Positions 6,663 to 25,501 are shown, numbered from the stretch's first letter. The stretch: DNA of 32,000 bases from Candidatus Saccharimonadota bacterium (GCF_002214165.1 NZ_CP019964.1:900001-932000), one strand, 5' to 3'. Made by a program: numbers and translations. The notes: generated by a model not told the origin, from the letters alone.

Positions 6663-6944
6663 ATGAAAGTTCCAAAAGAAATCAATACCTACTGCCCAAA
6701 GTGTGACAAAGAGTCCACACATACCGTGAAGTTCTACACACAAAAACCTAGAGGAGGTCTTAGTGTAGGAACTAGAAGAAGCGAAAGAAAGAGAAAGGGA
6801 TACTTTGGAAAGGTAAAAGGACAAGCCACAGTAAAGAAAGTCTCAAAAAGACAGAAGGCAATATTAAAATGCAAGGTTTGCTCTTATTCTGTCGAAAGAG
6901 TTTTCGGAAACCGGACAAAAAAGAAACTAGAATATAAGATGTGA
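6663..6944 (+). CDS. rpl44e: 50S ribosomal protein eL42 (L44e)
   Basis: MKVPKEINTYCPKCDKESTHTV...GYFGK...KCKVCSY: zinc-ribbon L44e pattern, 93 aa. Confidence 0.9.
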   Translation: MKVPKEINTYCPKCDKESTHTVKFYTQKPRGGLSVGTRRSERKRKGYFGKVKGQATVKKVSKRQKAILKCKVCSYSVERVFGNRTKKKLEYKM

Positions 6945-6950
6945 TAATTG

Positions 6951-7745
6951 ATGGAAGAGCATACACCAAAATTTGGAGACCTTGTTATCGGAGAGATATC
7001 TAAGATTTCCCCTTTTGGTGCTTATTGCAAACTACTAGAATATAATAACCTAGAAACGTTCCTTCCTTTAAGGGAAATATCTTCTGGCTGGATAAAGAAC
7101 ATCCACGAATTTTTACATATTAACCAAAGGGTGGTTTGCAAAGTAATATACATAGATAAGTCAAAAGGGACTATAGATGTATCATTAAAGAAAGTCACTC
7201 CTAGAGATGCCAAAATAAAAATTAACAAATATACATTGGAGAAACGTTCAGAAGTCATAATCCAACAAGCCTTAAAAATGACCAATTTGGAGGGCAGAAA
7301 AGTTGAAATAATCAATTCAATATTGCAAGAGTTTCCAAACTATACCTCATTTTTATCAAAGCTGTCCGATTCCGGCGAACCCATTAAAGGATCTTCTGTA
7401 CCTGTTGCTTTACAAGAAGAAATATTAAGGTTGATTCAATCAAGCAGGAAAAAGAAAGAATATAAAGTATCATACATATTGACATTATCTACTTACGACC
7501 CTAAAAGCAGTATTGATAGCATCAAGCAGTCTTTGTCCGATGCAGAGTCTAAAACAGGGTGTGGTATATATTACATAAGCTCTCCAAGATATCACATATC
7601 TGCAGAAGCGGACAATTACCTTAATGCAGAAGAGAAAATAAAAAAAGCCTTGTCTATAATAAAAACAGAGCTTAAAGGTTTTGACATAGAGATGGAAAAA
7701 GAAAAAGTGAAGAAGGATAAGGAGGATATTATAAGCGAGCTTTAA
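6951..7745 (+). CDS. eif2a: Translation initiation factor aIF2 alpha subunit
   Basis: N-terminal S1 domain (GDLVIGEISKISPFGAYCKLLEYNNLETFLPLREISSGWIKNI...VVCKVIYIDKSKGTIDVSLKKV) followed by helical and alpha/beta domains. It lies beside L44e as in the conserved archaeal cluster. Confidence 0.9.
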   Translation: MEEHTPKFGDLVIGEISKISPFGAYCKLLEYNNLETFLPLREISSGWIKNIHEFLHINQRVVCKVIYIDKSKGTIDVSLKKVTPRDAKIKINKYTLEKRSEVIIQQALKMTNLEGRKVEIINSILQEFPNYTSFLSKLSDSGEPIKGSSVPVALQEEILRLIQSSRKKKEYKVSYILTLSTYDPKSSIDSIKQSLSDAESKTGCGIYYISSPRYHISAEADNYLNAEEKIKKALSIIKTELKGFDIEMEKEKVKKDKEDIISEL

Positions 7746-7771
7746 AGACCATATTTATTCGGGTGAATCTT

Positions 7772-8539
7772 ATGAAAAATACTTTTATAAAATATAAAAA
7801 AGGCGTAAAGCTGAAATCACCTATACTTATAGTTGGTTTGCCTGGAATAGGTGCGGTAGGAAAGCTTGTAGCTACCCAAATGATAAAGGAGTTTAAGGGC
7901 AAGAGGATAGCAACACTATATTCTTCACATCTTCCCCCAAGAGTAATAATGCTAAAAAATGGAAAGGTAAGATTGGTAAGCAACAGGTTTTATTTACTGA
8001 AAACAAAGACCAAAAATGACATCGTGATATTAACTGGAGAAGATCAAGCAGTAACCCCAGAAGGGCAATATACAGTCAACAACGAAATTGTAAGATTCTT
8101 CAAATCTGAGTTAAAAGGAAAAGAGATAATTACCGTTGGGGGTTATAACATATCTGGAAATTATACAGATTCACCTAGAGTGCTTGGCAATGCCTCATCA
8201 GATAAAGTAATAAAGGAGTTTAAGAAAGCAGGTGTTGTATTCGGTGAATCCAGAGGCACCATATTTGGCGCTGCAGGTTTAATAGTTGCATTCTCAAAGA
8301 TGCAAAAACTTGACAGCATCTGCATAATGGGAGAATCTTCATTGATAGATATGGATCCAAATGCAGCAAAAGCAGTGCTGAAAGTCCTTTCTAAAAAATT
8401 CAGCTTAAATATAGACATGAAGAAAATAGACTCAATGATTGAAGCAACCGCAAAGATGATTAAAGAGCTGGAAAGTCAAATGTCGTCAAATGCAGCACTG
8501 CCACCAGAATCGAAGGAAAATTCCTCATATATACGTTGA
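7772..8539 (+). CDS. PAC2-family protein (proteasome assembly chaperone-like, COG1938-type)
   Basis: SPILIVGLPGIGAVGKLVATQMI...ATLYSSHLPP...ILTGEDQA is a PAC2-family pattern. This family commonly follows aIF2alpha/Nop10 in archaea. ATG at 7772; the track starts at a GTG at 7763. Confidence 0.7.
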   Translation: MKNTFIKYKKGVKLKSPILIVGLPGIGAVGKLVATQMIKEFKGKRIATLYSSHLPPRVIMLKNGKVRLVSNRFYLLKTKTKNDIVILTGEDQAVTPEGQYTVNNEIVRFFKSELKGKEIITVGGYNISGNYTDSPRVLGNASSDKVIKEFKKAGVVFGESRGTIFGAAGLIVAFSKMQKLDSICIMGESSLIDMDPNAAKAVLKVLSKKFSLNIDMKKIDSMIEATAKMIKELESQMSSNAALPPESKENSSYIR

Positions 8540-8549
8540 ATCGGGAATG

Positions 8550-8559
8550 TTTTAATATT
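8550..8559 (+). promoter_or_regulatory. TATA-like box (TTTTAATATT) for tRNA-Gly
   Basis: Centred about 28 nt upstream of the tRNA 5' end. Confidence 0.4.
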
Positions 8560-8582
8560 TTTCTTGCAATGTTAGTACATAT

Positions 8583-8670
8583 GCGCTAGTAATCTAGCCT
8601 GGTAGGATACTGGCTTCCCATATTAATTTGAAAAAAGCCAGAGGCCCGGGTCCAAATCCCGGCTGGCGCA
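8583..8670 (+). tRNA. tRNA-Gly (anticodon CCC) with a 15-nt intron (8621-8635) at the canonical 37/38 position
   Basis: Hand fold:
- acceptor GCGCTAG/CTGGCGC (one G.U)
- D stem ATCT/GGAT
- anticodon stem CTGGC/GCCAG, mature loop TTCCCAA
- T arm CCGGG-TCCAAAT-CCCGG
- discriminator A
- C2:G71 and G3:C70 fit Gly identity
The bulge-helix-bulge is relaxed: 3 of 4 central pairs. Confidence 0.7.
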
Positions 8671-8690
8671 AATTGCAAAATAGAGAATTA

Positions 8691-8700
8691 ATTTAAATAT
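8691..8700 (+). promoter_or_regulatory. TATA-like box (ATTTAAATAT) for tRNA-Ile
   Basis: Centred about 32 nt upstream of the tRNA 5' end. It has the same core as the elements upstream of tRNA-Ser and tRNAi-Met. Confidence 0.4.
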
Positions 8701-8727
8701 TTTCTCATTAAATATACTGCATATTAT

Positions 8728-8815
8728 GGGCTTGTAGCTCAGCTTGGTCAGAGCGGCGGTCTTATAATACCAATAAGAAAGCCGTAGGTCGAGAGTTCAA
8801 ATCTCTCCAGGCCCA
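8728..8815 (+). tRNA. tRNA-Ile (anticodon TAT = UAU) with a 13-nt intron (8767-8779) at 37/38
   Basis: Hand fold:
- acceptor GGGCTTG/CAGGCCC
- D arm GCTC-AGCTTGGTCA-GAGC, typical of archaeal tRNA-Ile
- anticodon stem GCGGT/GCCGT, mature loop CTTATAA
- T arm GAGAG-TTCAAAT-CTCTC
- discriminator A
The bulge-helix-bulge is canonical. The 4-bp helix CTTA(8761-8764)/TAAG(8774-8777) is flanked by the 3-nt bulges TAA and AAA, which places both cuts exactly at 37/38. Confidence 0.8.
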
Positions 8816-11349: not shown

Positions 11350-12279
11350 TTATTTTTTAACTTCTGCTGCCTTGTCCTTGCTGTCCGCGTTTTCCTTGTC
11401 CTTAGCTTCATTATCCTCTTTCATTATCCTTGATATTGCCTTCAATGCGTATTCGCTGAGCTGGTCTTTGATCTTGGGCTCATCATCCAAATTGCCATCC
11501 GCGTATATGTCAACTCCAAATGCCAGCTGGGTTATATTCTTTATCTCTATAGAAACATTTTTGACCGTACTTTTGCTTACTCCTTCATTGAAGTAATCCC
11601 TAAACCTGCTGTAATCTATCTTTATGTCTACTTCAACATGGCTGAATACCCTGATCTTGCCAACTCTCTTCTTGTTGAATATAACCGCTTGGTTCATTAT
11701 GCTGTTTGGCACCACTATAGGAGTCCCGTTGTCCGCTACCATCTCAGTATACATGATCCCTATTTTACTTACAGTGCCTGTAAATCCTGGGACCATAACA
11801 TCGTGCTGGTATGTGGGTGCTATAAGGCCATACTGCCATGTTGATATTGTTACCTTCTCTCCTATGGAAAAGGGCTTCGAAGCCATAAGCTCAAATCCTG
11901 CTATAAGGTTGCCTATCGTGCTCTGTGCTGCCAATCCAAGGACTATGCCCAAGAATCCTGCACCTACCAGCAACCCCATCACATTGACTTGCAGCTCATT
12001 AAGTATTACTATTAAAAGTATGGTATATGCAACAACCTCAAAAAGATCTCCGACCACTTTCGTTTCGTTGTTCCTTGACTTTACTCTATCCTTTATGGTC
12101 CTGCCTACCATCTCTATTATTATTATTCCAGCAATACCTACTATCAATGCATGTATCCATATAAGGTCCACATGTGCATTGACGAAAAATTTAGAGTAAA
12201 CCCCAAGCAAATAGGAGACTATGAAAGCCAACACTATCACGAGCAATCCAACCATTAATAAGCGTCTGTAAATTCCCAA
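11350..12279 (-). CDS. Small-conductance mechanosensitive channel (MscS family)
   Basis: N-terminal TM helices are followed by GFLGIVLGLAAQSTIGNLIAGFELMASKPFSIGEKVTI, the MscS pore-helix/beta-domain signature. The C-terminal tail is Lys/Asp/Glu-rich. Confidence 0.85.
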   Translation of the reverse strand: MGIYRRLLMVGLLVIVLAFIVSYLLGVYSKFFVNAHVDLIWIHALIVGIAGIIIIEMVGRTIKDRVKSRNNETKVVGDLFEVVAYTILLIVILNELQVNVMGLLVGAGFLGIVLGLAAQSTIGNLIAGFELMASKPFSIGEKVTISTWQYGLIAPTYQHDVMVPGFTGTVSKIGIMYTEMVADNGTPIVVPNSIMNQAVIFNKKRVGKIRVFSHVEVDIKIDYSRFRDYFNEGVSKSTVKNVSIEIKNITQLAFGVDIYADGNLDDEPKIKDQLSEYALKAISRIMKEDNEAKDKENADSKDKAAEVKK

Positions 12280-12303
12280 AACATACCACCAAAAATGAAA
12301 AAT

Positions 12304-13119
12304 TCACTCCATATAAGGAGCAAGATAGTAAGAAACTTTAGCGTCCCCTATATTATAGTTCAGCCTTATAGGCTGGTCCGACTTCATCTCCAAGGTGATT
12401 GTTTCGCTGGATGGACAGGCGCTTATCATCCTGCTAAGGTAATCAAGGTTAAATGTTGCTGAAGAAGGTTTTTTAGTGTCGATCTTGTGTATTTGCTCAT
12501 TATCGCTTTTGAATTCTTCTTCAAGCTCTCCTGCATCTCCCTTTGCGGAAACTATAAGGGTATCCTCTTCAAGCTTGAAACCAACATAGGTTGACAGCTG
12601 TGCTGCATCTTTCAATATCCCTTTGAAATAGTCGCTCTTTATGCTTATTGATGAATCAAACTCTATCTTTGGTTCCGAGTCTGTAGATTTCTTCACATCT
12701 ATCATTGGCAGTATATAGCTCCTATGTCCATTGCTGCTCAGGAACTCCAGTATCATCTTGTTGTCCTTATCCTTCATTGATAGCTGCTCTCCACTCCTTG
12801 CGCTGTTCAAAAGCTTGCTGAAATTGCTTAAATTCAAGCCTATATAGTATCCTGAAGACTTCTCCTCCTTGTCCTTGCTTTCCTTTTCGCCATCAGAATC
12901 TGCAGATTTTGCCTTTGCTTCCGCTTTTGCGGACACATCAAATTTTGAAAATATCTTATTCGGGGCCTGGAATGACACCATACTTATTCCAGATGGATCC
13001 ATGGCCTTTAAATTGATGCCCTCTTTTGAAATGTAAAATGACCCTTCGTCAACCAAGCTGACAATCGAGTCTGTGCAGTTCTTCCAGTACTTTGCGTCAT
13101 CTATTTTTATTTCGAACAT
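12304..13119 (-). CDS. pcn: DNA polymerase sliding clamp PCNA, with a charged low-complexity insertion
   Basis: MFEIKIDDAKYWKNCTDSIVSLVDEGSFYISKEGINLKAMDPSGISMVSF... and C-terminal ..VSYYLAPYME are PCNA-like. There is a ~27-aa insertion (AKAEAKAKSADSDGEKESKDKEEKSSG) at aa 64-90. Confidence 0.9.
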   Translation of the reverse strand: MFEIKIDDAKYWKNCTDSIVSLVDEGSFYISKEGINLKAMDPSGISMVSFQAPNKIFSKFDVSAKAEAKAKSADSDGEKESKDKEEKSSGYYIGLNLSNFSKLLNSARSGEQLSMKDKDNKMILEFLSSNGHRSYILPMIDVKKSTDSEPKIEFDSSISIKSDYFKGILKDAAQLSTYVGFKLEEDTLIVSAKGDAGELEEEFKSDNEQIHKIDTKKPSSATFNLDYLSRMISACPSSETITLEMKSDQPIRLNYNIGDAKVSYYLAPYME

Positions 13120-13245: not shown

Positions 13246-14061
13246 ATGTGGAATTTATATATAAGCATGCAATTTTTCAAAGCGCTAACGTTGATGAAGA
13301 AGGACTTAAAAGAAACCTTCTCTAGCATATCAATATATGGGCCAATGCTCGGAATACCTATATTCTTTGCGATAATCCTTCCAGTAATGACATTTTACAT
13401 AACCTTGTATGCGGCACCTACAATAACTTCAAAGCTCCTTCCGACAACCATAAAGGTTTCGTCATCCGTTCTGTCAAGCAGCATAAGAAGCATAAAATTC
13501 ATGGAATTCTTCTCTGTCAACGTGCTAGGGCCGGTATTTTTGACAATGCCTATATTTACAGCATCTGTGATAGCGGCAGACAGCTTTGCAGGAGAAAAGG
13601 AAAGAGGCACTTCAGAATCATTGCTGTCCACACCAATCTCAAAATCCGAGCTCCTTTCAGGAAAGATATTGGCCTCTTTTGTGCCTACAATATTGTTGAC
13701 TCTTGCCATATTCGGAATATATGGAGCCGTTACCGATTACTTTTCAATAAGTGTTTTTCACTTTGCAATACTACCAACCATACCATGGCTTTTGATGCTT
13801 GGGACCGCACCGTTTCTGGCAACTGCCTCAATAGGTCTTGTCGTTCTGGTATCATCACACGTCAAAGGTGTTAAAGAAGCGCAGCAGATAAGCACACTGC
13901 TTGTACTGCCTATTCTGGTGCTCCCGTTTGCATCAATAATAGGGCTGGCAGTGCTTAATGTCGAATTCCTCGTGTCTGCAATTGTGATATTGGCAATATT
14001 GGATGCAATAATAATGTATCTTGGAATAAAAAGTTTCAGGAAAGAGTCTATCCTCCAATAG
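13246..14061 (+). CDS. ABC-2 type transporter permease (no adjacent ATPase gene)
   Basis: Six predicted TM segments and the motif ADSFAGEKERGTSESLLSTPISKSELLSGKILA, typical of NatB-like ABC-2 permeases. An alternative start is the ATG at 13267. Confidence 0.65.
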   Translation: MWNLYISMQFFKALTLMKKDLKETFSSISIYGPMLGIPIFFAIILPVMTFYITLYAAPTITSKLLPTTIKVSSSVLSSSIRSIKFMEFFSVNVLGPVFLTMPIFTASVIAADSFAGEKERGTSESLLSTPISKSELLSGKILASFVPTILLTLAIFGIYGAVTDYFSISVFHFAILPTIPWLLMLGTAPFLATASIGLVVLVSSHVKGVKEAQQISTLLVLPILVLPFASIIGLAVLNVEFLVSAIVILAILDAIIMYLGIKSFRKESILQ

Positions 14062-15790
14062 ATTTGATTATACTCTCTATAGCCTGAAGATTGCTTGAGG
14101 GCACAACATGCACATCATTTAGTTTTAAATAATCCCTGTAGTACTGGTAACTTTTTTCATGGACTACCACTATTACAGCAGAATAATGCTTTATCCTTTC
14201 TTCAATCATCCTTTTTGAAGATCCAAAATTCTTTTTGCCTGTCTCATATTCTACAGCAATCCTAAATCCATTATAATAAGCCACTATGTCCGGTTTTCCC
14301 CTTCCCGTTCCCTTGAAATTCCTTACCCTGACCAAATCTAAGTAATTCATTATTTCGTTTACGGATATTTCATGTTCGATGCTAAGGTTTGACTTATTGG
14401 CCATTATATAGAGTTTTCCTTTATAGAGGTATTTACTTATAATACCATTTTTAAGCCCGTAGGATATTGATTCCAATGGCAGGTGTGTGAGCAAAGAGTT
14501 TAATTCCACAGGATATTTTGCATATCTGTAAAGCAAATTGGCATAACCTGCAAAATCGCTGTTAAAAATACTCTTGGAAATTTCATTATAGCTCTTTCCC
14601 TTTACCTTGAAAAGCCCTTTTGAAACAGGGTCATGAATTATGAACTCGTTTGTATTTAGTGAGCTTAAGGCCGCTTTTATAACATTGTTTTTCTCATTTA
14701 TAGATCCGGAAAATATATTTGAAAGATAATTAAGTTCTGTGGGCTCCTTTGACTGGAATGACAGTGTTAAATTTGAATTGGCTATAATCTGTTTGTTCAA
14801 AGACGAAGATTCGTGTGTAACAGCTATGATGCCAAACCCATACTTCCTCCCTTCTTCAAAGAATTTTGATAGCACCTTCATGTAAATATCTTCATCAAGC
14901 AACGTGTCTGCTTCATCTATGACAATATACAGTTTGGTGCCTCCTTTCGATTCCAGAGAATGCATGTGCTGGTAAATTCTGCTGAAAAGTTCATGCAGGT
15001 ATATAAATCTCAAATTTTTATTGTTCAACTTTGCAAGGTTTATCCCATTGGTGCCTTTAAGCAAGGATTTAACATCAAACGATGAATCATTTAGCGAGCG
15101 CCTATTTATCAGCTCAAATTTGTTCTTCATATTTTCCAATGAGTAAGAGTCGGGCTTTGATCTAGAATTATCAATAAAAGTATTTATCTCCTTTAAAAGA
15201 TCATACATATTAGGGGTAGAGGGCAGCTCAGGAAGGTCAAAATTTACTACACCTTTATTTCTGTAAACATACCTAAGTATGCTATTTAGCCTATAAGATT
15301 GATGGCTACCCAAGTTTAACACAGTTGAAAAAAGGTAAAACAATTCCGATATCCTGTCATTAACGCTAATGCCATCAAGGCCAAACGGATTTATCCCACT
15401 GTAATCAGAATCTCTATAAGTGCCATTTAGAAGTTCTACAAGTTCCTTATGCTCTCCGTTTGGATCCAAGAGCAATATAGGAACCTTGTCCTTCATCTGT
15501 ATAAGCAGGTCCTTCAATAATGTACTTTTTCCAGAGCCGCTTGCCCCAGAAATTAAAATATTGAGGTTTTTCTGCTTTTCCATATCCAAAATCAAGGATC
15601 CGTCTGCATTCTTCCATCCATATTCATAAATCAAACTGCTTTTCCCATAAAAACTAAAAGCAACTTTTTCGTATCTGTGCAAAGTGCCAAGCTTTTTGCC
15701 AAAATCCAAGGCAAAAATGTTTTCTGATTTTGCAGAACGCTTCCTGCAAAGGCCAAACCCAAAAATTCGACGGAATTTTTTATATATCAT
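14048..15790 (-). CDS. HerA/FtsK-superfamily (DUF87/AAA_10-like) P-loop ATPase fused to a C-terminal winged-helix plus PD-(D/E)xK-like nuclease module
   Basis: 580 aa.
- Walker A: GASGSGKST (aa 82-90; I verified nt 15521-15547).
- Walker B: LYIVIDEAD (aa 287-295).
- RKYGFGIIAVTHES (aa 315-328).
- The C-terminal ~115 aa carry ..SIEHEIS..(18)..GKPDIVAYYNGFRIAVEYETGKK.., an E...PD...E.E..K arrangement.
- ~40 aa just before that look like a winged helix. Confidence 0.6.
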   Translation of the reverse strand: MIYKKFRRIFGFGLCRKRSAKSENIFALDFGKKLGTLHRYEKVAFSFYGKSSLIYEYGWKNADGSLILDMEKQKNLNILISGASGSGKSTLLKDLLIQMKDKVPILLLDPNGEHKELVELLNGTYRDSDYSGINPFGLDGISVNDRISELFYLFSTVLNLGSHQSYRLNSILRYVYRNKGVVNFDLPELPSTPNMYDLLKEINTFIDNSRSKPDSYSLENMKNKFELINRRSLNDSSFDVKSLLKGTNGINLAKLNNKNLRFIYLHELFSRIYQHMHSLESKGGTKLYIVIDEADTLLDEDIYMKVLSKFFEEGRKYGFGIIAVTHESSSLNKQIIANSNLTLSFQSKEPTELNYLSNIFSGSINEKNNVIKAALSSLNTNEFIIHDPVSKGLFKVKGKSYNEISKSIFNSDFAGYANLLYRYAKYPVELNSLLTHLPLESISYGLKNGIISKYLYKGKLYIMANKSNLSIEHEISVNEIMNYLDLVRVRNFKGTGRGKPDIVAYYNGFRIAVEYETGKKNFGSSKRMIEERIKHYSAVIVVVHEKSYQYYRDYLKLNDVHVVPSSNLQAIESIIKSIGG

Positions 15791-15810
15791 TCACTCATCA
15801 AAAAGTGTAT

Positions 15811-15819
15811 ATTTAAATA
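15811..15819 (+). promoter_or_regulatory. TATA-like box (ATTTAAATA) for tRNA-Ser
   Basis: Centred about 31 nt upstream of the tRNA 5' end, in the 55-bp gap after the divergent ATPase gene. Confidence 0.4.
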
Positions 15820-15845
15820 CTTTCTTTTTGAAAGATAGGTATGTT

Positions 15846-15971
15846 GCCAGGGTGGCGGAAACCGGTAACGCGCCGGTCTTGAGTTTTTAGGACATCAAGA
15901 GCTGATTAGTGATGCAAAACAGGCCAACCGGTGCCCGAAAGGGCTTTAGGGTTCAAATCCCTACCCTGGCG
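15846..15971 (+). tRNA. tRNA-Ser (anticodon TGA = UGA), class II, with a 42-nt intron (15884-15925) at 37/38
   Basis: Hand fold:
- acceptor GCCAGGG/CCCTGGC
- 3-bp D stem GCG/CGC
- anticodon stem CCGGT/ACCGG, loop CTTGAG|A
- long variable arm TGCCCGAAAGGGCTT
- T arm TAGGG-TTCAAAT-CCCTA
- discriminator G
The bulge-helix-bulge is canonical. The helix CTTG(15878-81)/CAGG(15920-23) is flanked by the 3-nt bulges AGT and CCA. Confidence 0.85.
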
Positions 15972-16119
15972 CACTTTAAATCTAAAATCTCAAAACTCTA
16001 TTACTTAATACCAACTCACTTAATATTGGGTTTAGTAAAATAAGTTAATTTAATAAATACGTCATAATTATAGATATTTAAATTTTAATATCTAAATTAT
16101 TTTAGTTTTAAGTGACAAA

Positions 16120-16689
16120 ATGTTATTAGATCTCCAGATATTCAATAAAATAATGCCTAAATTAGCTGATGAAACACCTATCGTAATTACTTGGATATAT
16201 AATACTATCAAAACTCTTGTTCCATCTAATAAAATATCTCCTCTTTTGCTGATTTTAGAAGAACCATACGTGTATTCATATACATCTATTGAGGAAATTA
16301 AGCCTGCCTTCCCTAAACCTAAAGATCCAACTAGAACAAAAAGTAAAAATAAAATAAAAGTAATAAAATTTGGTTTAATAACTAAAACAAATTTCTATCC
16401 ACTGAATAATAAAATTCAAGCACATAAAGAAGTACCAAAATTAAAAGATCAGATACCAAAACTTTTTGAAAAGAATTTTATCCTCTATTTTAAAAGAAAA
16501 CAAAACAAACATGATGTTTATTATATTTATTTTAATCTTAAGTCATTGGAAAAAGGAAAGGGTTCTAATAATTATATCGATACAATTTTAAGCTATTTTA
16601 AAAGTAAAGAACTTAAAAAGGTTTTAGATATATCTAATGACCAACTTGAAAAAATAAAGACTGCATTAGCCCAAAAAGTAACATCCTAA
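16120..16689 (+). CDS. Hypothetical Lys-rich protein (orphan; very low G+C)
   Basis: 189-aa ORF with no motif I recognise. Two 60-nt lines inside it gave 27% and 17% G+C. No competing ORF on the other strand. Confidence 0.4.
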   Translation: MLLDLQIFNKIMPKLADETPIVITWIYNTIKTLVPSNKISPLLLILEEPYVYSYTSIEEIKPAFPKPKDPTRTKSKNKIKVIKFGLITKTNFYPLNNKIQAHKEVPKLKDQIPKLFEKNFILYFKRKQNKHDVYYIYFNLKSLEKGKGSNNYIDTILSYFKSKELKKVLDISNDQLEKIKTALAQKVTS

Positions 16690-16838
16690 AAGTAATACTG
16701 TTAATATATGAAATAAGTATTTTAGGGTGTAAAGACCCAAATTACTATAACCCCTTTTATCATAAATAATATAAAGCAATAAGTTGACGGTAATTTAAAT
16801 GCTCTATTGTAAAGTACAGAGTGATTCGAGGTAATCTT

Positions 16839-17186
16839 ATGGATGGACAGATTAAGGATTCAAGCACGGGAATGCAGGCCTCTAAAATTGGAATGATAAG
16901 TGGCTTAAGTTTTGTGGTTATGATAATATTTGGCGCTATTGTAGGAGATATTGTATTCTATACATTTTTGAATAGCATACTTTTCTATTTTGTCGGTCCT
17001 TCTAGCATATTCCTTACTCTAGTCATAGGGATTGTAATAGTAATAATTTCTGCATCATTTATAAGCCAGTCCAATGAACCTTCGGGATTACTTTATGCAG
17101 CCATCTTTTTAGGTTGTATGGGAGTACCTCTTTTTGGAGGGGTGGAAATATACCGCGTAGCCAAAAAGCATAATCTTACCCGCTGA
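16839..17186 (+). CDS. Hypothetical small membrane protein (about 3 TM)
   Basis: Hydrophobic segments GLSFVVMIIFGAIVGDIVFYTFL, IFLTLVIGIVIVIISASFI and LLYAAIFLGCMGVPLFGG. ATG at 16839; the track starts at a GTG at 16821. Confidence 0.45.
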   Translation: MDGQIKDSSTGMQASKIGMISGLSFVVMIIFGAIVGDIVFYTFLNSILFYFVGPSSIFLTLVIGIVIVIISASFISQSNEPSGLLYAAIFLGCMGVPLFGGVEIYRVAKKHNLTR

Positions 17187-17375
17187 AAAACTTCCAATAC
17201 GCTGTAAAGTGCCTAGCACTTTACTTTCCAAAAATAATATCAGTTAATCTTTGCATTCTTATTCAATTATAAATTTCCTATGTGTAACTTTCCTATTTTG
17301 AAGCTGTACTCTAATTTGGTATAAGCTTAAGAAATCAAGCAGAAAAGAAAAGAAAGTTCACCTGATGCCATAAAA

Positions 17376-25375: not shown

Positions 25376-25501
25376 TGTTAAACGGTAATAGGAGCATGGA
25401 AACGCCCGATCCCTTTCCGAACTCGGAAGCTAAGCATGCTAACGATATGTGTGTACTGCCTGCGGGTGGGAAAGCATATTGCTGTTTAGCATCTATATTA
25501 T
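25376..25501 (+). rRNA. rrf: 5S ribosomal RNA, not linked to 16S/23S genes in this window
   Basis: Contains the universal 5S core ...GCCCGATCCCTTTCCGAACTCGGAAGCTAAGC... Helix I is formed by 25376-25385 (TGTTAAACGG) with 25492-25501 (CTGTTTAGCA). End coordinates are accurate to within a few nt. Confidence 0.85.

Follow-up and report, generated by a model that had tools for sequence, protein, structure and literature searches.

Does a gene that joins a predicted DNA motor to a predicted nuclease in one polypeptide belong to a mobile defence locus, or does it serve the chromosome that carries it? The question is raised by a gene for a protein of 580 amino acids (aa) in the 32,000-nucleotide (nt) stretch NZ_CP019964.1:900001-932000 (GCF_002214165.1; hereafter the window), whose product is 100% identical to 'AAA ATPase [Candidatus Mancarchaeum acidiphilum]', a protein of a DPANN archaeon of the phylum Micrarchaeota. 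An original prediction had read the protein as a HerA/FtsK-type ATPase fused to a winged helix and a PD-(D/E)xK-like nuclease, and had proposed that it constitutes a compact defence module in an accessory locus. As detailed below, the domain reading stood up to profile and structure searches, while the proposals of an accessory locus and of a defence module were not supported. The gene is vertically inherited and conserved on the chromosome across Micrarchaeota rather than being a mobile defence cassette; the reading that we favour, tentatively, is that of an ATP-driven DNA translocase-endonuclease for chromosomal DNA repair or processing.

The motor domain was placed by profile as well as by structure. 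Pfam DUF87 (PF01935, 'Helicase HerA, central domain') matched aa 66-263 with 34.5 bits against a cutoff of 23.2 (3e-8), and the motif strings that had been quoted for this P-loop NTPase are all present, their coordinates checked by translation. When a profile of six homologues was compared with the sequences in the PDB, the best match was the C-terminal domain of DptH/DndH (1.8e-15), followed by the defence HerAs (~1e-13), Sulfolobus HerA (1.5e-12), the STIV packaging ATPase B204 (1.3e-10) and VirB4 (3e-5). Foldseek searches with the AlphaFold2 (AF2) model of the full-length protein (predicted local distance difference test score, pLDDT, 82.4) returned the DndH C-terminal domain at 1.3e-16 and both VirB4 and HerA at 3e-15, all with probability 1.0; the alignment with the VirB4 C-domain had a template modelling (TM) score of 0.70-0.72 on the target and a root-mean-square deviation of 3.7-4.2 Å. 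The top PADLOC match was mad8 (1.7e-21, aa 71-397), PHROG gave phrog_2666 'terminase large subunit' (1.3e-15), and the nearest sequence outside the family (P0008) is that of a VirB4/TraC-like ATPase from bacteria, encoded in a cluster resembling a type IV secretion system (T4SS). The ATPase is a HerA/FtsK-superfamily motor that may belong to either the VirB4-like or the DndH-like branch. R315 of its EGRK motif is, by comparison with other HerA/FtsK ATPases, the probable arginine finger (PMC10853773). A HAS barrel, which had not been recognised in the sequence either, is absent from the AF2 model: a hairpin of aa 27-69 alone precedes the P-loop core, in the place that the HAS barrel occupies in HerA.

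As to family membership, NCBIfam TIGR00929 (VirB4_CagE) matched at 6e-15 with 54.4 bits against a cutoff of 643.1, over profile positions 439-693 only; NF053655 (CedD) matched at 2.4e-14 with 52.9 bits against 600, over the ATPase core only; and TraC gave a sub-threshold match. The HerA equivalogs NF040937 and NF040819 scored 31.1 bits against 800 and 16.9 against 970, respectively, and FtsK/SpoIIIE (PF01580) remained below threshold, with 18.7 bits against 24 over the P-loop region only. Because all these curated cutoffs were missed widely, we conclude that the protein is not an orthologue of HerA, VirB4, CedD or FtsK. Further features bear on the individual candidates. HerA sensu stricto was rejected for want of the HAS barrel and of an adjacent NurA gene as well, VirB4/TraC conjugation ATPases for want of a VirB4 N-domain and of T4SS-type neighbours, and CedD since its transmembrane segment and VirB4-like N-terminal domain (PMC11868833) are not in the model; FtsK/SpoIIIE fell with the PF01580 score. 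With DndFGH/DptFGH the protein has only the C-terminal ATPase domain in common, and neighbours of the DndF/DndG type were not found, so this assignment was rejected too.

The same matches bear on one conceivable role, that of a DNA uptake motor of an episymbiont, in which a VirB4/Ced-like ATPase would import DNA of the Thermoplasmatales host and its own nuclease would fragment it for recombination or salvage. VirB4_CagE, CedD and TraC are the top NCBIfam matches, but their scores lie far under the family cutoffs (54 versus 643 bits for the first, 53 versus 600 for the second); and while both the Foldseek alignment with the VirB4 C-domain and the closeness of P0008 point the same way, the AF2 model holds neither a transmembrane segment nor a VirB4 N-domain. 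The HerA-clade ATPases CedD and CedB are needed for DNA import in Sulfolobales (PMC11868833), and the distribution of the family, limited to a host-dependent DPANN phylum, would fit a similar task. CedA/VirB6/pilin-like genes, however, do not recur beside the gene, and the ABC-2 permease gene next to it in the window is convergent and is not kept as a neighbour in most loci. On balance, we regard DNA uptake as improbable.

The C-terminus could be resolved only by structure prediction and Foldseek, because sequence profiles returned nothing: its last 170 aa are matched by no Pfam or NCBIfam model, a Pfam search of aa 381-580 at E ≤ 10 yielded nothing but a spurious Pox_RNA_pol match, and phmmer/hmmsearch comparison with PDB sequences gave zero matches. 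The AF2 model of aa 418-580, built on a 43-sequence alignment, reached a pLDDT of 96.6 and a predicted TM score of 0.89. It opens with the winged helix that had been proposed to precede the nuclease, comprising three helices and a beta-hairpin (H2-6, H13-16, H22-30, E34-39 and E42-47 in the numbering of this C-terminal model), and continues into an alpha-beta-beta-beta-alpha-beta nuclease core (aa 471-543). The leading PDB matches in Foldseek were VC1899 (1.8e-4), FokI (3.2e-4) and HindIII (6e-4), and the alignments with FokI and VC1899 span both the winged helix-turn-helix (wHTH) and the nuclease. Further matches comprised Cdn1, Bax1, many Hjc/Hje structures, RecU/PrfA, BspD6I and YaeQ. The PDB matches were nearly all of the restriction-endonuclease (REase) fold, with probabilities of 0.9-1.0, and the viral models in BFVD contributed VRR-NUC, Mrr and 'restriction endonuclease' proteins. 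On these matches, we take the PD-(D/E)xK fold of this domain as confirmed. Membership in the Hjc family (PF01870) was rejected: without a Pfam or PDB sequence match, the likeness is at the level of the fold only.

Relatives of this domain were sought by an exhaustive profile search in which the last 163 aa were compared with 1.84 billion representative proteins, yielding 189 clusters at E ≤ 1e-3, 105 of these at E ≤ 1e-10; a word-indexed homologue search had found 6 family members only. The proteins recovered are mostly 520-610 aa long and carry the domain at their C-terminus. An ATPase of the DUF87/AAA_10/TraG-P-loop type is also present in the longer homologues scanned and in some shorter, fragment-like ones, and some distant homologues show Pfam matches to MarR/IclR/ArsR helix-turn-helix (HTH) domains in the region preceding the C-terminal domain.

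Conservation of the two active sites was counted in 140 domain sequences and in 75 full-length Micrarchaeota proteins, the latter with a median pairwise identity of 33%. In the motor, the Walker A residues G82, S84, G85, G87, K88 and S89, the Walker B residues D292 and E293, and E313, R315 and K316 are each present in 75/75 proteins. In the nuclease, D501, E514 and E516 are each found in 140/140 domain sequences, with D501 and the E-Y-E-T-G string in 75/75 full-length proteins. H473 (139/140), P500 (137/140), T517 (134/140) and G518 (139/140) are likewise kept in all 75, whereas E472 occurs in 102/140 and 73/75, an E or D at position 474 in 69/75, and K520 in 108/140 and 69/75; K519 is not conserved. 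Of the catalytic residues predicted from the sequence, the acidic ones are conserved. The canonical (D/E)xK lysine position is E516, a glutamate in all sequences, and K520, no more than near-invariant, lies in the following loop. The residues E472, D501 and E514-x-516 are spaced by 29, 13 and 2 residues, close to the E12...D42...E55-x-K57 pattern of Sulfolobus Hjc. BamHI (E77, D94, E111, E113) also has a glutamate at the lysine position and is catalytically active. On these sequence patterns, the C-terminal domain is probably an active nuclease with a variant signature.

It has to be weighed against this that the domain might be a non-cleaving DNA- or metal-binding module, the protein then being a pure FtsK-like translocase or remodeller with a gamma-domain-like winged helix, a reading that is orthogonal to those concerning its role. 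The glutamate found at the lysine position in every sequence would suit such a module, and fusions of ATPases with inactive REase domains have been described (PMC10853773). Inactive domains normally lose their acidic residues, however, and here D501, E514 and E516 are kept throughout, as is H473 in all domain sequences but one. An E..D..ExE set, moreover, is competent in BamHI, and we think it quite improbable that the domain has ceased to cleave.

We then asked how the gene is distributed and inherited. When one genome of each GTDB species was scanned with the motif [KRN][IVF]A[IV]EYETG, loci were confirmed in at least 108 species-level genomes, the order of domains from the ATPase to the C-terminal domain being identical in all of them. 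Of the 80 best loci, 78 bear the label Micrarchaeota, Micrarchaeia or Micrarchaeaceae and 2 that of Marsarchaeota. In the relative whose protein is 79% identical (L004), the gene has the same position, with an intron-bearing tRNA-Ser gene upstream and genes for ABC-2 permease, PCNA, MscS, a ThrRS-editing-domain protein, DJ-1, Rpr2 and a wyosine radical-SAM protein downstream. The same block is recognisable, in part inverted, in the 45% relative (L006), and PCNA and DJ-1 are still near in the 33% relative (L010). The original prediction itself had held that a syntenic gene in the relatives would tell against it, and synteny is largely what these three relatives show. It had also counted a low G+C content towards an accessory origin. 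The gene, at 35.6%, indeed lies below its immediate neighbours (40-43%), but the difference from the window mean of 37.3% is weak, and over 49 orthologous loci gene GC tracks that of the host genome from 24% to 61%, with a mean difference of +0.8% and no systematic deficit.

An accessory island or a horizontal transfer was therefore rejected, because synteny is kept, GC tracks the host and no att-like repeats were found beside the tRNA-Ser gene; the neighbours are housekeeping genes, the adjacency to the tRNA holds at genus level only, and the orphan block on the far side of the tRNA is a separate matter (see below). Neither the GC dip nor the tRNA adjacency nor the AT-rich orphan reading frame is thus a sign of mobility of the ATPase-nuclease gene. 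An origin of the Micrarchaeota family from viruses or plasmids was rejected as well: IMG/VR held zero relatives, and PLSDB plasmids gave matches to the ATPase domain only, at 22-27% identity.

A related possibility is that the gene descends from a packaging or segregation ATPase with a nuclease, following a terminase-like logic, that was domesticated from a mobile element and fixed at the base of the Micrarchaeota; its present role would then be none beyond persistence, or be tied to an unrecognised element. The matches to phrog_2666 and to STIV B204 fit such an origin, as do distant homologues of 744-790 aa, which stand in arrays of ORFans together with genes for a Holliday junction (HJ)-resolvase-like protein, a RecA/KaiC-like ATPase and SLFN_AlbA_2. 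Around the Micrarchaeota family, by contrast, no capsid, integrase or other element genes were seen, and the empty IMG/VR search counts here too. Both active sites are, in addition, under strict purifying selection across the phylum, because of which we assume a current cellular function. Of the explanations considered here, a domesticated mobile-element gene of this kind strikes us as the least probable.

The distant homologues just mentioned deserve a brief description. A 21-kb contig (L094) and two further loci (L095/L096) encode 790-aa and 744-aa proteins with the ATPase-wHTH-nuclease C-terminus among small ORFans; the contig also carries an HJ-resolvase-like open reading frame (ORF) and a HIRAN protein, and L095 a RecA/KaiC-like ATPase and SLFN_AlbA_2. 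These contexts look virus- or plasmid-like. Within the family proper, a metagenome-assembled genome has the gene split into ORFs of 424 and 109 aa (L036, 6737-8318), by frameshift, pseudogenisation or assembly error; one locus (L054) has a second family member of 762 aa about 2 genes upstream of position 6744; and in REEA81 copies of the gene lie on two contigs (L023, L038).

To see in which company the gene is found, we took a census of 142 immediate neighbours in loci L001-L090. Clustered neighbour ORFs proved to be housekeeping genes, with a synteny that decays slowly. By Pfam, the commonest family was AP_endonuc_2 (12 of the 142), followed by DUF192 (9), AsnC-type HTH (5), molybdopterin oxidoreductase (4), DHH (4) and ribosomal protein S19e (3). 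An AP_endonuc_2-family gene lies upstream on the same strand in 24/82 loci, in 12 of them with a gap of ≤26 nt or an overlap, and a representative of these neighbours is deoxyribonuclease IV/endonuclease IV (nfo; TIGR00587, 228.6 bits against a cutoff of 129.65). The co-directional cluster that contains nfo also holds a beta-CASP gene that comes nearest to the ligase-associated DNA-damage-response exonuclease (110 bits, under cutoff). RecJ-like DHH/DHHA1 genes stand beside the ATPase-nuclease gene in 10 loci, and PCNA recurs nearby in the Mancarchaeum lineage. We see the nfo linkage, the beta-CASP exonuclease-like gene, the RecJ-like DHH genes and PCNA as pointing towards repair. In one subclade (L032, L040, L053, L071 and L072; for instance L032, 2831-6750), a beta-CASP gene is followed by two conserved unknowns of ~136 and ~187 aa, by endonuclease IV and, last, by the ATPase-nuclease, downstream of which lies a DUF192 gene in convergent orientation.

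Genes for known partners of such motors were looked for in parallel. NurA, of which the original prediction had seen no adjacent copy, is absent within +/-10 kb and among the 142 immediate neighbours, as are Mre11 and Rad50, and a Sir2 or DUF4297 effector was found neither at the window locus nor among the top neighbour families. PADLOC identified no recurrent defence partner in the census: its counts were mad2 4 (best 4.3e-20), PDC-S07 2, Type II methyltransferase 1 and PDC-S01 1, and a single mad8 match is probably the N-terminal half of the split ATPase-nuclease copy. No multi-gene mad cluster was present in the window or in the Pfam census, and the AsnC-HTH neighbour cluster c8, considered as a MADS mad2 partner, was rejected for having no mad2 match.

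These results bear most directly on the proposal of a defence module, which in its strongest form holds that the protein is a single-polypeptide, ATP-dependent, restriction-like enzyme comparable to Type IV or 'HerA/FtsK capture' systems: its motor would intercept incoming or translocating foreign DNA, the winged helix would discriminate it (e.g., by its modification state) and the REase would cut it, with retention throughout the phylum being due to the constant exposure of episymbionts to host and viral DNA. The kinship of the ATPase with DptH/DndH (1.8e-15 by profile, 1.3e-16 by structure), mad8 (1.7e-21) and the defence HerAs is in line with this idea, and so are the use of REase, wHTH and HerA/FtsK combinations in anti-invader systems (PMC10853773), the likeness of the wHTH-REase module to FokI and to VC1899-type effectors, the fact that the gene outpaces its neighbours in divergence, and a DNA methyltransferase gene inserted directly downstream in one lineage. 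Nevertheless, the gene shows no island behaviour, with its position kept, housekeeping neighbours and ameliorated GC; it has no recurrent methyltransferase or other partner in the census (Type II methyltransferase 1, PDC-S01 1 and mad2 4 of the 142); copies in viruses and plasmids were not found in IMG/VR and PLSDB; and a phylum-wide, mostly single-copy retention is atypical of defence genes. We consider defence less likely than a role in processing the cell's own DNA during repair or recombination; as an explanation in its own right it appears unlikely, yet far from negligible.

In the preferred reading, that of a chromosomal translocase-endonuclease, the HerA/FtsK-type domain would, as family resemblance suggests, form a hexameric ring, hydrolyse ATP and translocate on double-stranded DNA, while the winged helix would hold, position or recognise the DNA. 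The Hjc/FokI-like PD-(D/E)xK domain would then cut it, with E472/H473...D501...E514-x-E516 as the candidate metal-binding set and with cleavage coupled to ATP-driven translocation. The task so served would be repair or recombination of the cell's own DNA by end resection or by processing of branched DNA, with a single protein as the putative analogue of the HerA-NurA pair or of a motor acting with Hjc.

Several observations sit uneasily with this assignment. The nearest ATPases by both profile and structure belong to defence and conjugation (DptH/DndH, mad8, defence HerA and VirB4), and the canonical catalytic lysine is absent, so that nuclease activity is predicted only. The linkage to nfo is limited to one subclade (median identity 47%, versus 33% overall) and absent in Mancarchaeum; being so confined, it may reflect inherited synteny and not a functional operon. 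Divergence of the protein also outpaces that of most housekeeping genes around it (79% versus ~89%, 45% versus ~64%, and 33% versus 56% for PCNA, in the three relatives), a pace that is also typical of conflict genes. Lastly, the distant 790-aa and 744-aa homologues occur in mobile-element-like, ORFan-dense, co-directional arrays.

The coordinates of the gene, its domains and motifs, and the features on its 5′ side are collected in Table 1. As had been noted from the sequence, the gene is divergent from a tRNA-Ser gene, here identified as tRNA-Ser(UGA) by Rfam; it has a 45-nt insertion (intron) in the anticodon loop and a long variable arm, and its divergent position relative to the ATPase-nuclease gene is retained in the 79% relative, not in the 45% relative. 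The intergenic region common to both genes holds a TATA-like A/T-rich element, TATATTTAAATAC, at 15808-15820, 20-30 nt 5′ of the ATG of the ATPase-nuclease gene; its spacing would suit a leaderless archaeal mRNA, making it a putative promoter. The AT-rich orphan ORF seen beyond the tRNA is one of two ORFans in a 1.4-kb block of 28% GC (15972-17375), between the 3′ side of the tRNA-Ser gene and a DUF981 gene. This block has no Pfam or PHROG matches and is absent from the 79% relative, and it looks like a separate small strain-specific insertion adjoining the tRNA.

Table 1. Coordinates of the ATPase-nuclease gene, its parts and the adjacent features, counted from the first nucleotide of the window
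Feature	Coordinates	Strand	Description and source
ATPase-wHTH-nuclease gene	14048..15790	(-)	ATG start, 580 aa + stop; ORF list
Two-stranded beta-hairpin, aa 27-69	15584..15712	(-)	Strands E27-45 and E51-69, pLDDT 62-90; AF2
HerA/FtsK-superfamily P-loop ATPase domain, aa 70-400	14591..15583	(-)	DUF87/AAA_10/TraG-P-loop type
Walker A GASGSGKST, aa 82-90	15521..15547	(-)	Translation
Walker B YIVIDEAD, aa 288-295	14906..14929	(-)	Translation
EGRK motif, aa 313-316	14843..14854	(-)	EGRK(YGFGIIAVTHES), read from 14854 downwards
Winged helix-turn-helix, aa 413-464	14399..14554	(-)	Three helices and beta-hairpin wing; AF2
PD-(D/E)xK (restriction-endonuclease-fold) domain, aa 468-580	14051..14389	(-)	AF2 and Foldseek
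E472-H473-E474	14369..14377	(-)	Start of nuclease helix alpha1
P500-D501	14288..14293	(-)	Start of nuclease strand beta2
E514-Y-E516-T-G-K-K520 (EYETGKK)	14231..14251	(-)	On and after strand beta3; K520 in the following loop
Divergent intergenic region	15791..15845	.	Common to gene and tRNA-Ser; sequence read directly
tRNA-Ser(UGA)	15846-15971	(+)	126 nt, 44.1 bits, Rfam; missed by ARAGORN
AT-rich orphan ORF	16120-16689		189 aa, 25% GC
Second ORFan, membrane-like	16821-17186		121 aa

On its other side, the gene and the convergent ABC-2 permease gene (13246-14061), to which no gene for a partner ABC ATPase is adjacent, overlap at their 3′ ends by 14 nt (14048-14061). The PCNA gene beyond the permease gene (12304-13119, minus strand) encodes a protein of 271 aa with a low-complexity insert rich in K, E, S and D, KAEAKAKSADSDGEKESKDKEEKSSG; PCNA of the 33% relative has 247 aa. 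Elsewhere in the window, two adjacent 88-nt tRNA genes lie at 8583-8670 and 8728-8815 on the plus strand, of which ARAGORN gave one only, as 'tRNA-???'; these may have non-canonical features too. A 5S rRNA gene stands alone at 25378-25490 on the plus strand (76.4 bits), no other rRNA genes being detected in the window, and unlinked 5S genes are present in the 45% and 33% relatives as well.

Further genes near the ATPase-nuclease gene were noted in its relatives. In loci L006-L009 (for instance L006, 11976-13593), an N6/N4 DNA methyltransferase of 310 aa and a convergent 231-aa ORF without Pfam match lie between the ATPase-nuclease gene and that of the ABC-2 permease, and may represent a small restriction-modification cassette. 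An AAA_14/DUF4143 ATPase gene (11944-13029; PADLOC PDC-S01, 1.8e-62) follows the gene on the same strand in the 33% relative. In the 79% relative, genes for a GIY-YIG protein, an HTH_34 protein, a 182-aa ORF and a PemK toxin (7098-8776) are inserted between DUF1453 and DUF981, all of them absent in Mancarchaeum; on this DUF1453/DUF981 side, the locus has a hotspot of small insertions.

How does the protein compare with known systems? A HerA/FtsK motor coupled to a nuclease is a well-known theme from HerA-NurA, Sir2-HerA, HerA-DUF4297 and the capture systems, and the one-polypeptide fusion, while real, is less novel than the original prediction had suggested, given that it already exists in DndH and in 'HerA/FtsK capture' systems, in which REase, wHTH and HerA/FtsK occur in one or several polypeptides (PMC10853773). 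With HerA-NurA, Sir2-HerA and HerA-DUF4297, the Mancarchaeum protein shares a similar ATPase core, of the ring type, coupled to a nuclease, and DUF4297 is, by the titles of its PDB entries, a PD-(D/E)xK protein too. In those systems the nuclease is a separate subunit, whereas here it is fused at the C-terminus, and the protein has neither the HAS barrel nor a NurA, Sir2 or DUF4297 neighbour. NurA is not known to be a PD-(D/E)xK protein. DndH/DptH also combines REase, (w)HTH and HerA/FtsK ATPase, and its C-domain is the top PDB match of the motor, but DndH measures ~1700 aa, has eight domains with the REase N-terminal to the ATPase, and works with DndF and DndG as partners (PMC10853773). The Mancarchaeum protein has 580 aa, the order ATPase-wHTH-REase and no partners, and its gene is conserved on the chromosomes of one archaeal phylum, in contrast with the mobile defence neighbourhoods in which DndH sits.

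VirB4 and CedB-CedD, the latter two serving DNA import in Sulfolobales as HerA-clade ATPases (PMC11868833), are the top NCBIfam matches, with a close structural match to the C-terminal ATPase domain of VirB4. They carry no nuclease domain, whereas the Mancarchaeum protein does; it in turn lacks the VirB4-type N-domain, transmembrane helices and T4SS/Ced neighbours, and its scores lie far under the cutoffs. Its nuclease domain shares the alpha-beta-beta-beta-alpha-beta core of Hjc/Hje and of FokI/HindIII, and the spacing of its E...D...E-x-E residues resembles that of Sulfolobus Hjc; in FokI, too, winged-helix DNA-binding domains precede the nuclease. It differs from nucleases of the Hjc/FokI type by the glutamate in place of lysine, as in BamHI, by an extra invariant histidine in alpha1 and by the fused motor ATPase. 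Large terminases and STIV B204 offer a similar motor-plus-nuclease logic, with sequence similarity to B204 and to the PHROG family 'terminase large subunit', but the Micrarchaeota family has no viral context, and terminase nucleases are RNase-H-like and not known as PD-(D/E)xK proteins. What is new here is the compact ATPase-wHTH-REase order, with an E-x-E site and an invariant histidine and without HAS barrel or partners, in a conserved chromosomal gene of DPANN archaea. No prior description of this fusion in Micrarchaeota or DPANN was found in the literature searched; in databases the family goes by 'AAA ATPase', 'DUF87' or 'DUF853'.

DPANN archaea such as Micrarchaeota rely on hosts and have tiny genomes, and how they maintain, repair or acquire DNA is poorly understood. 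Against this background, the gene stands out as a strongly conserved, uncharacterised enzyme that pairs a predicted DNA pump with a predicted nuclease across the phylum. More speculatively, and with considerable doubt, we can imagine a phylum-specific one-protein motor and nuclease, perhaps shared with a few other archaea, that replaces a multi-protein end-resection or junction-processing machine in reduced genomes or lets episymbionts pull in and cut host DNA. Its REase site, with glutamate for the canonical lysine and an invariant histidine, would be driven by a VirB4/DndH-like ring ATPase; on this view the gene would serve DNA maintenance, not defence, and its product would found a new class of core archaeal enzyme. 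As a machine for repair or resection, the protein would accomplish with minimal means what elsewhere takes HerA and NurA, or a motor and Hjc; as an enzyme of defence or DNA uptake, it would bear on the way episymbionts handle host DNA. In either case, the protein is compact and testable, and its E-x-E signature marks out a new family of the REase fold.

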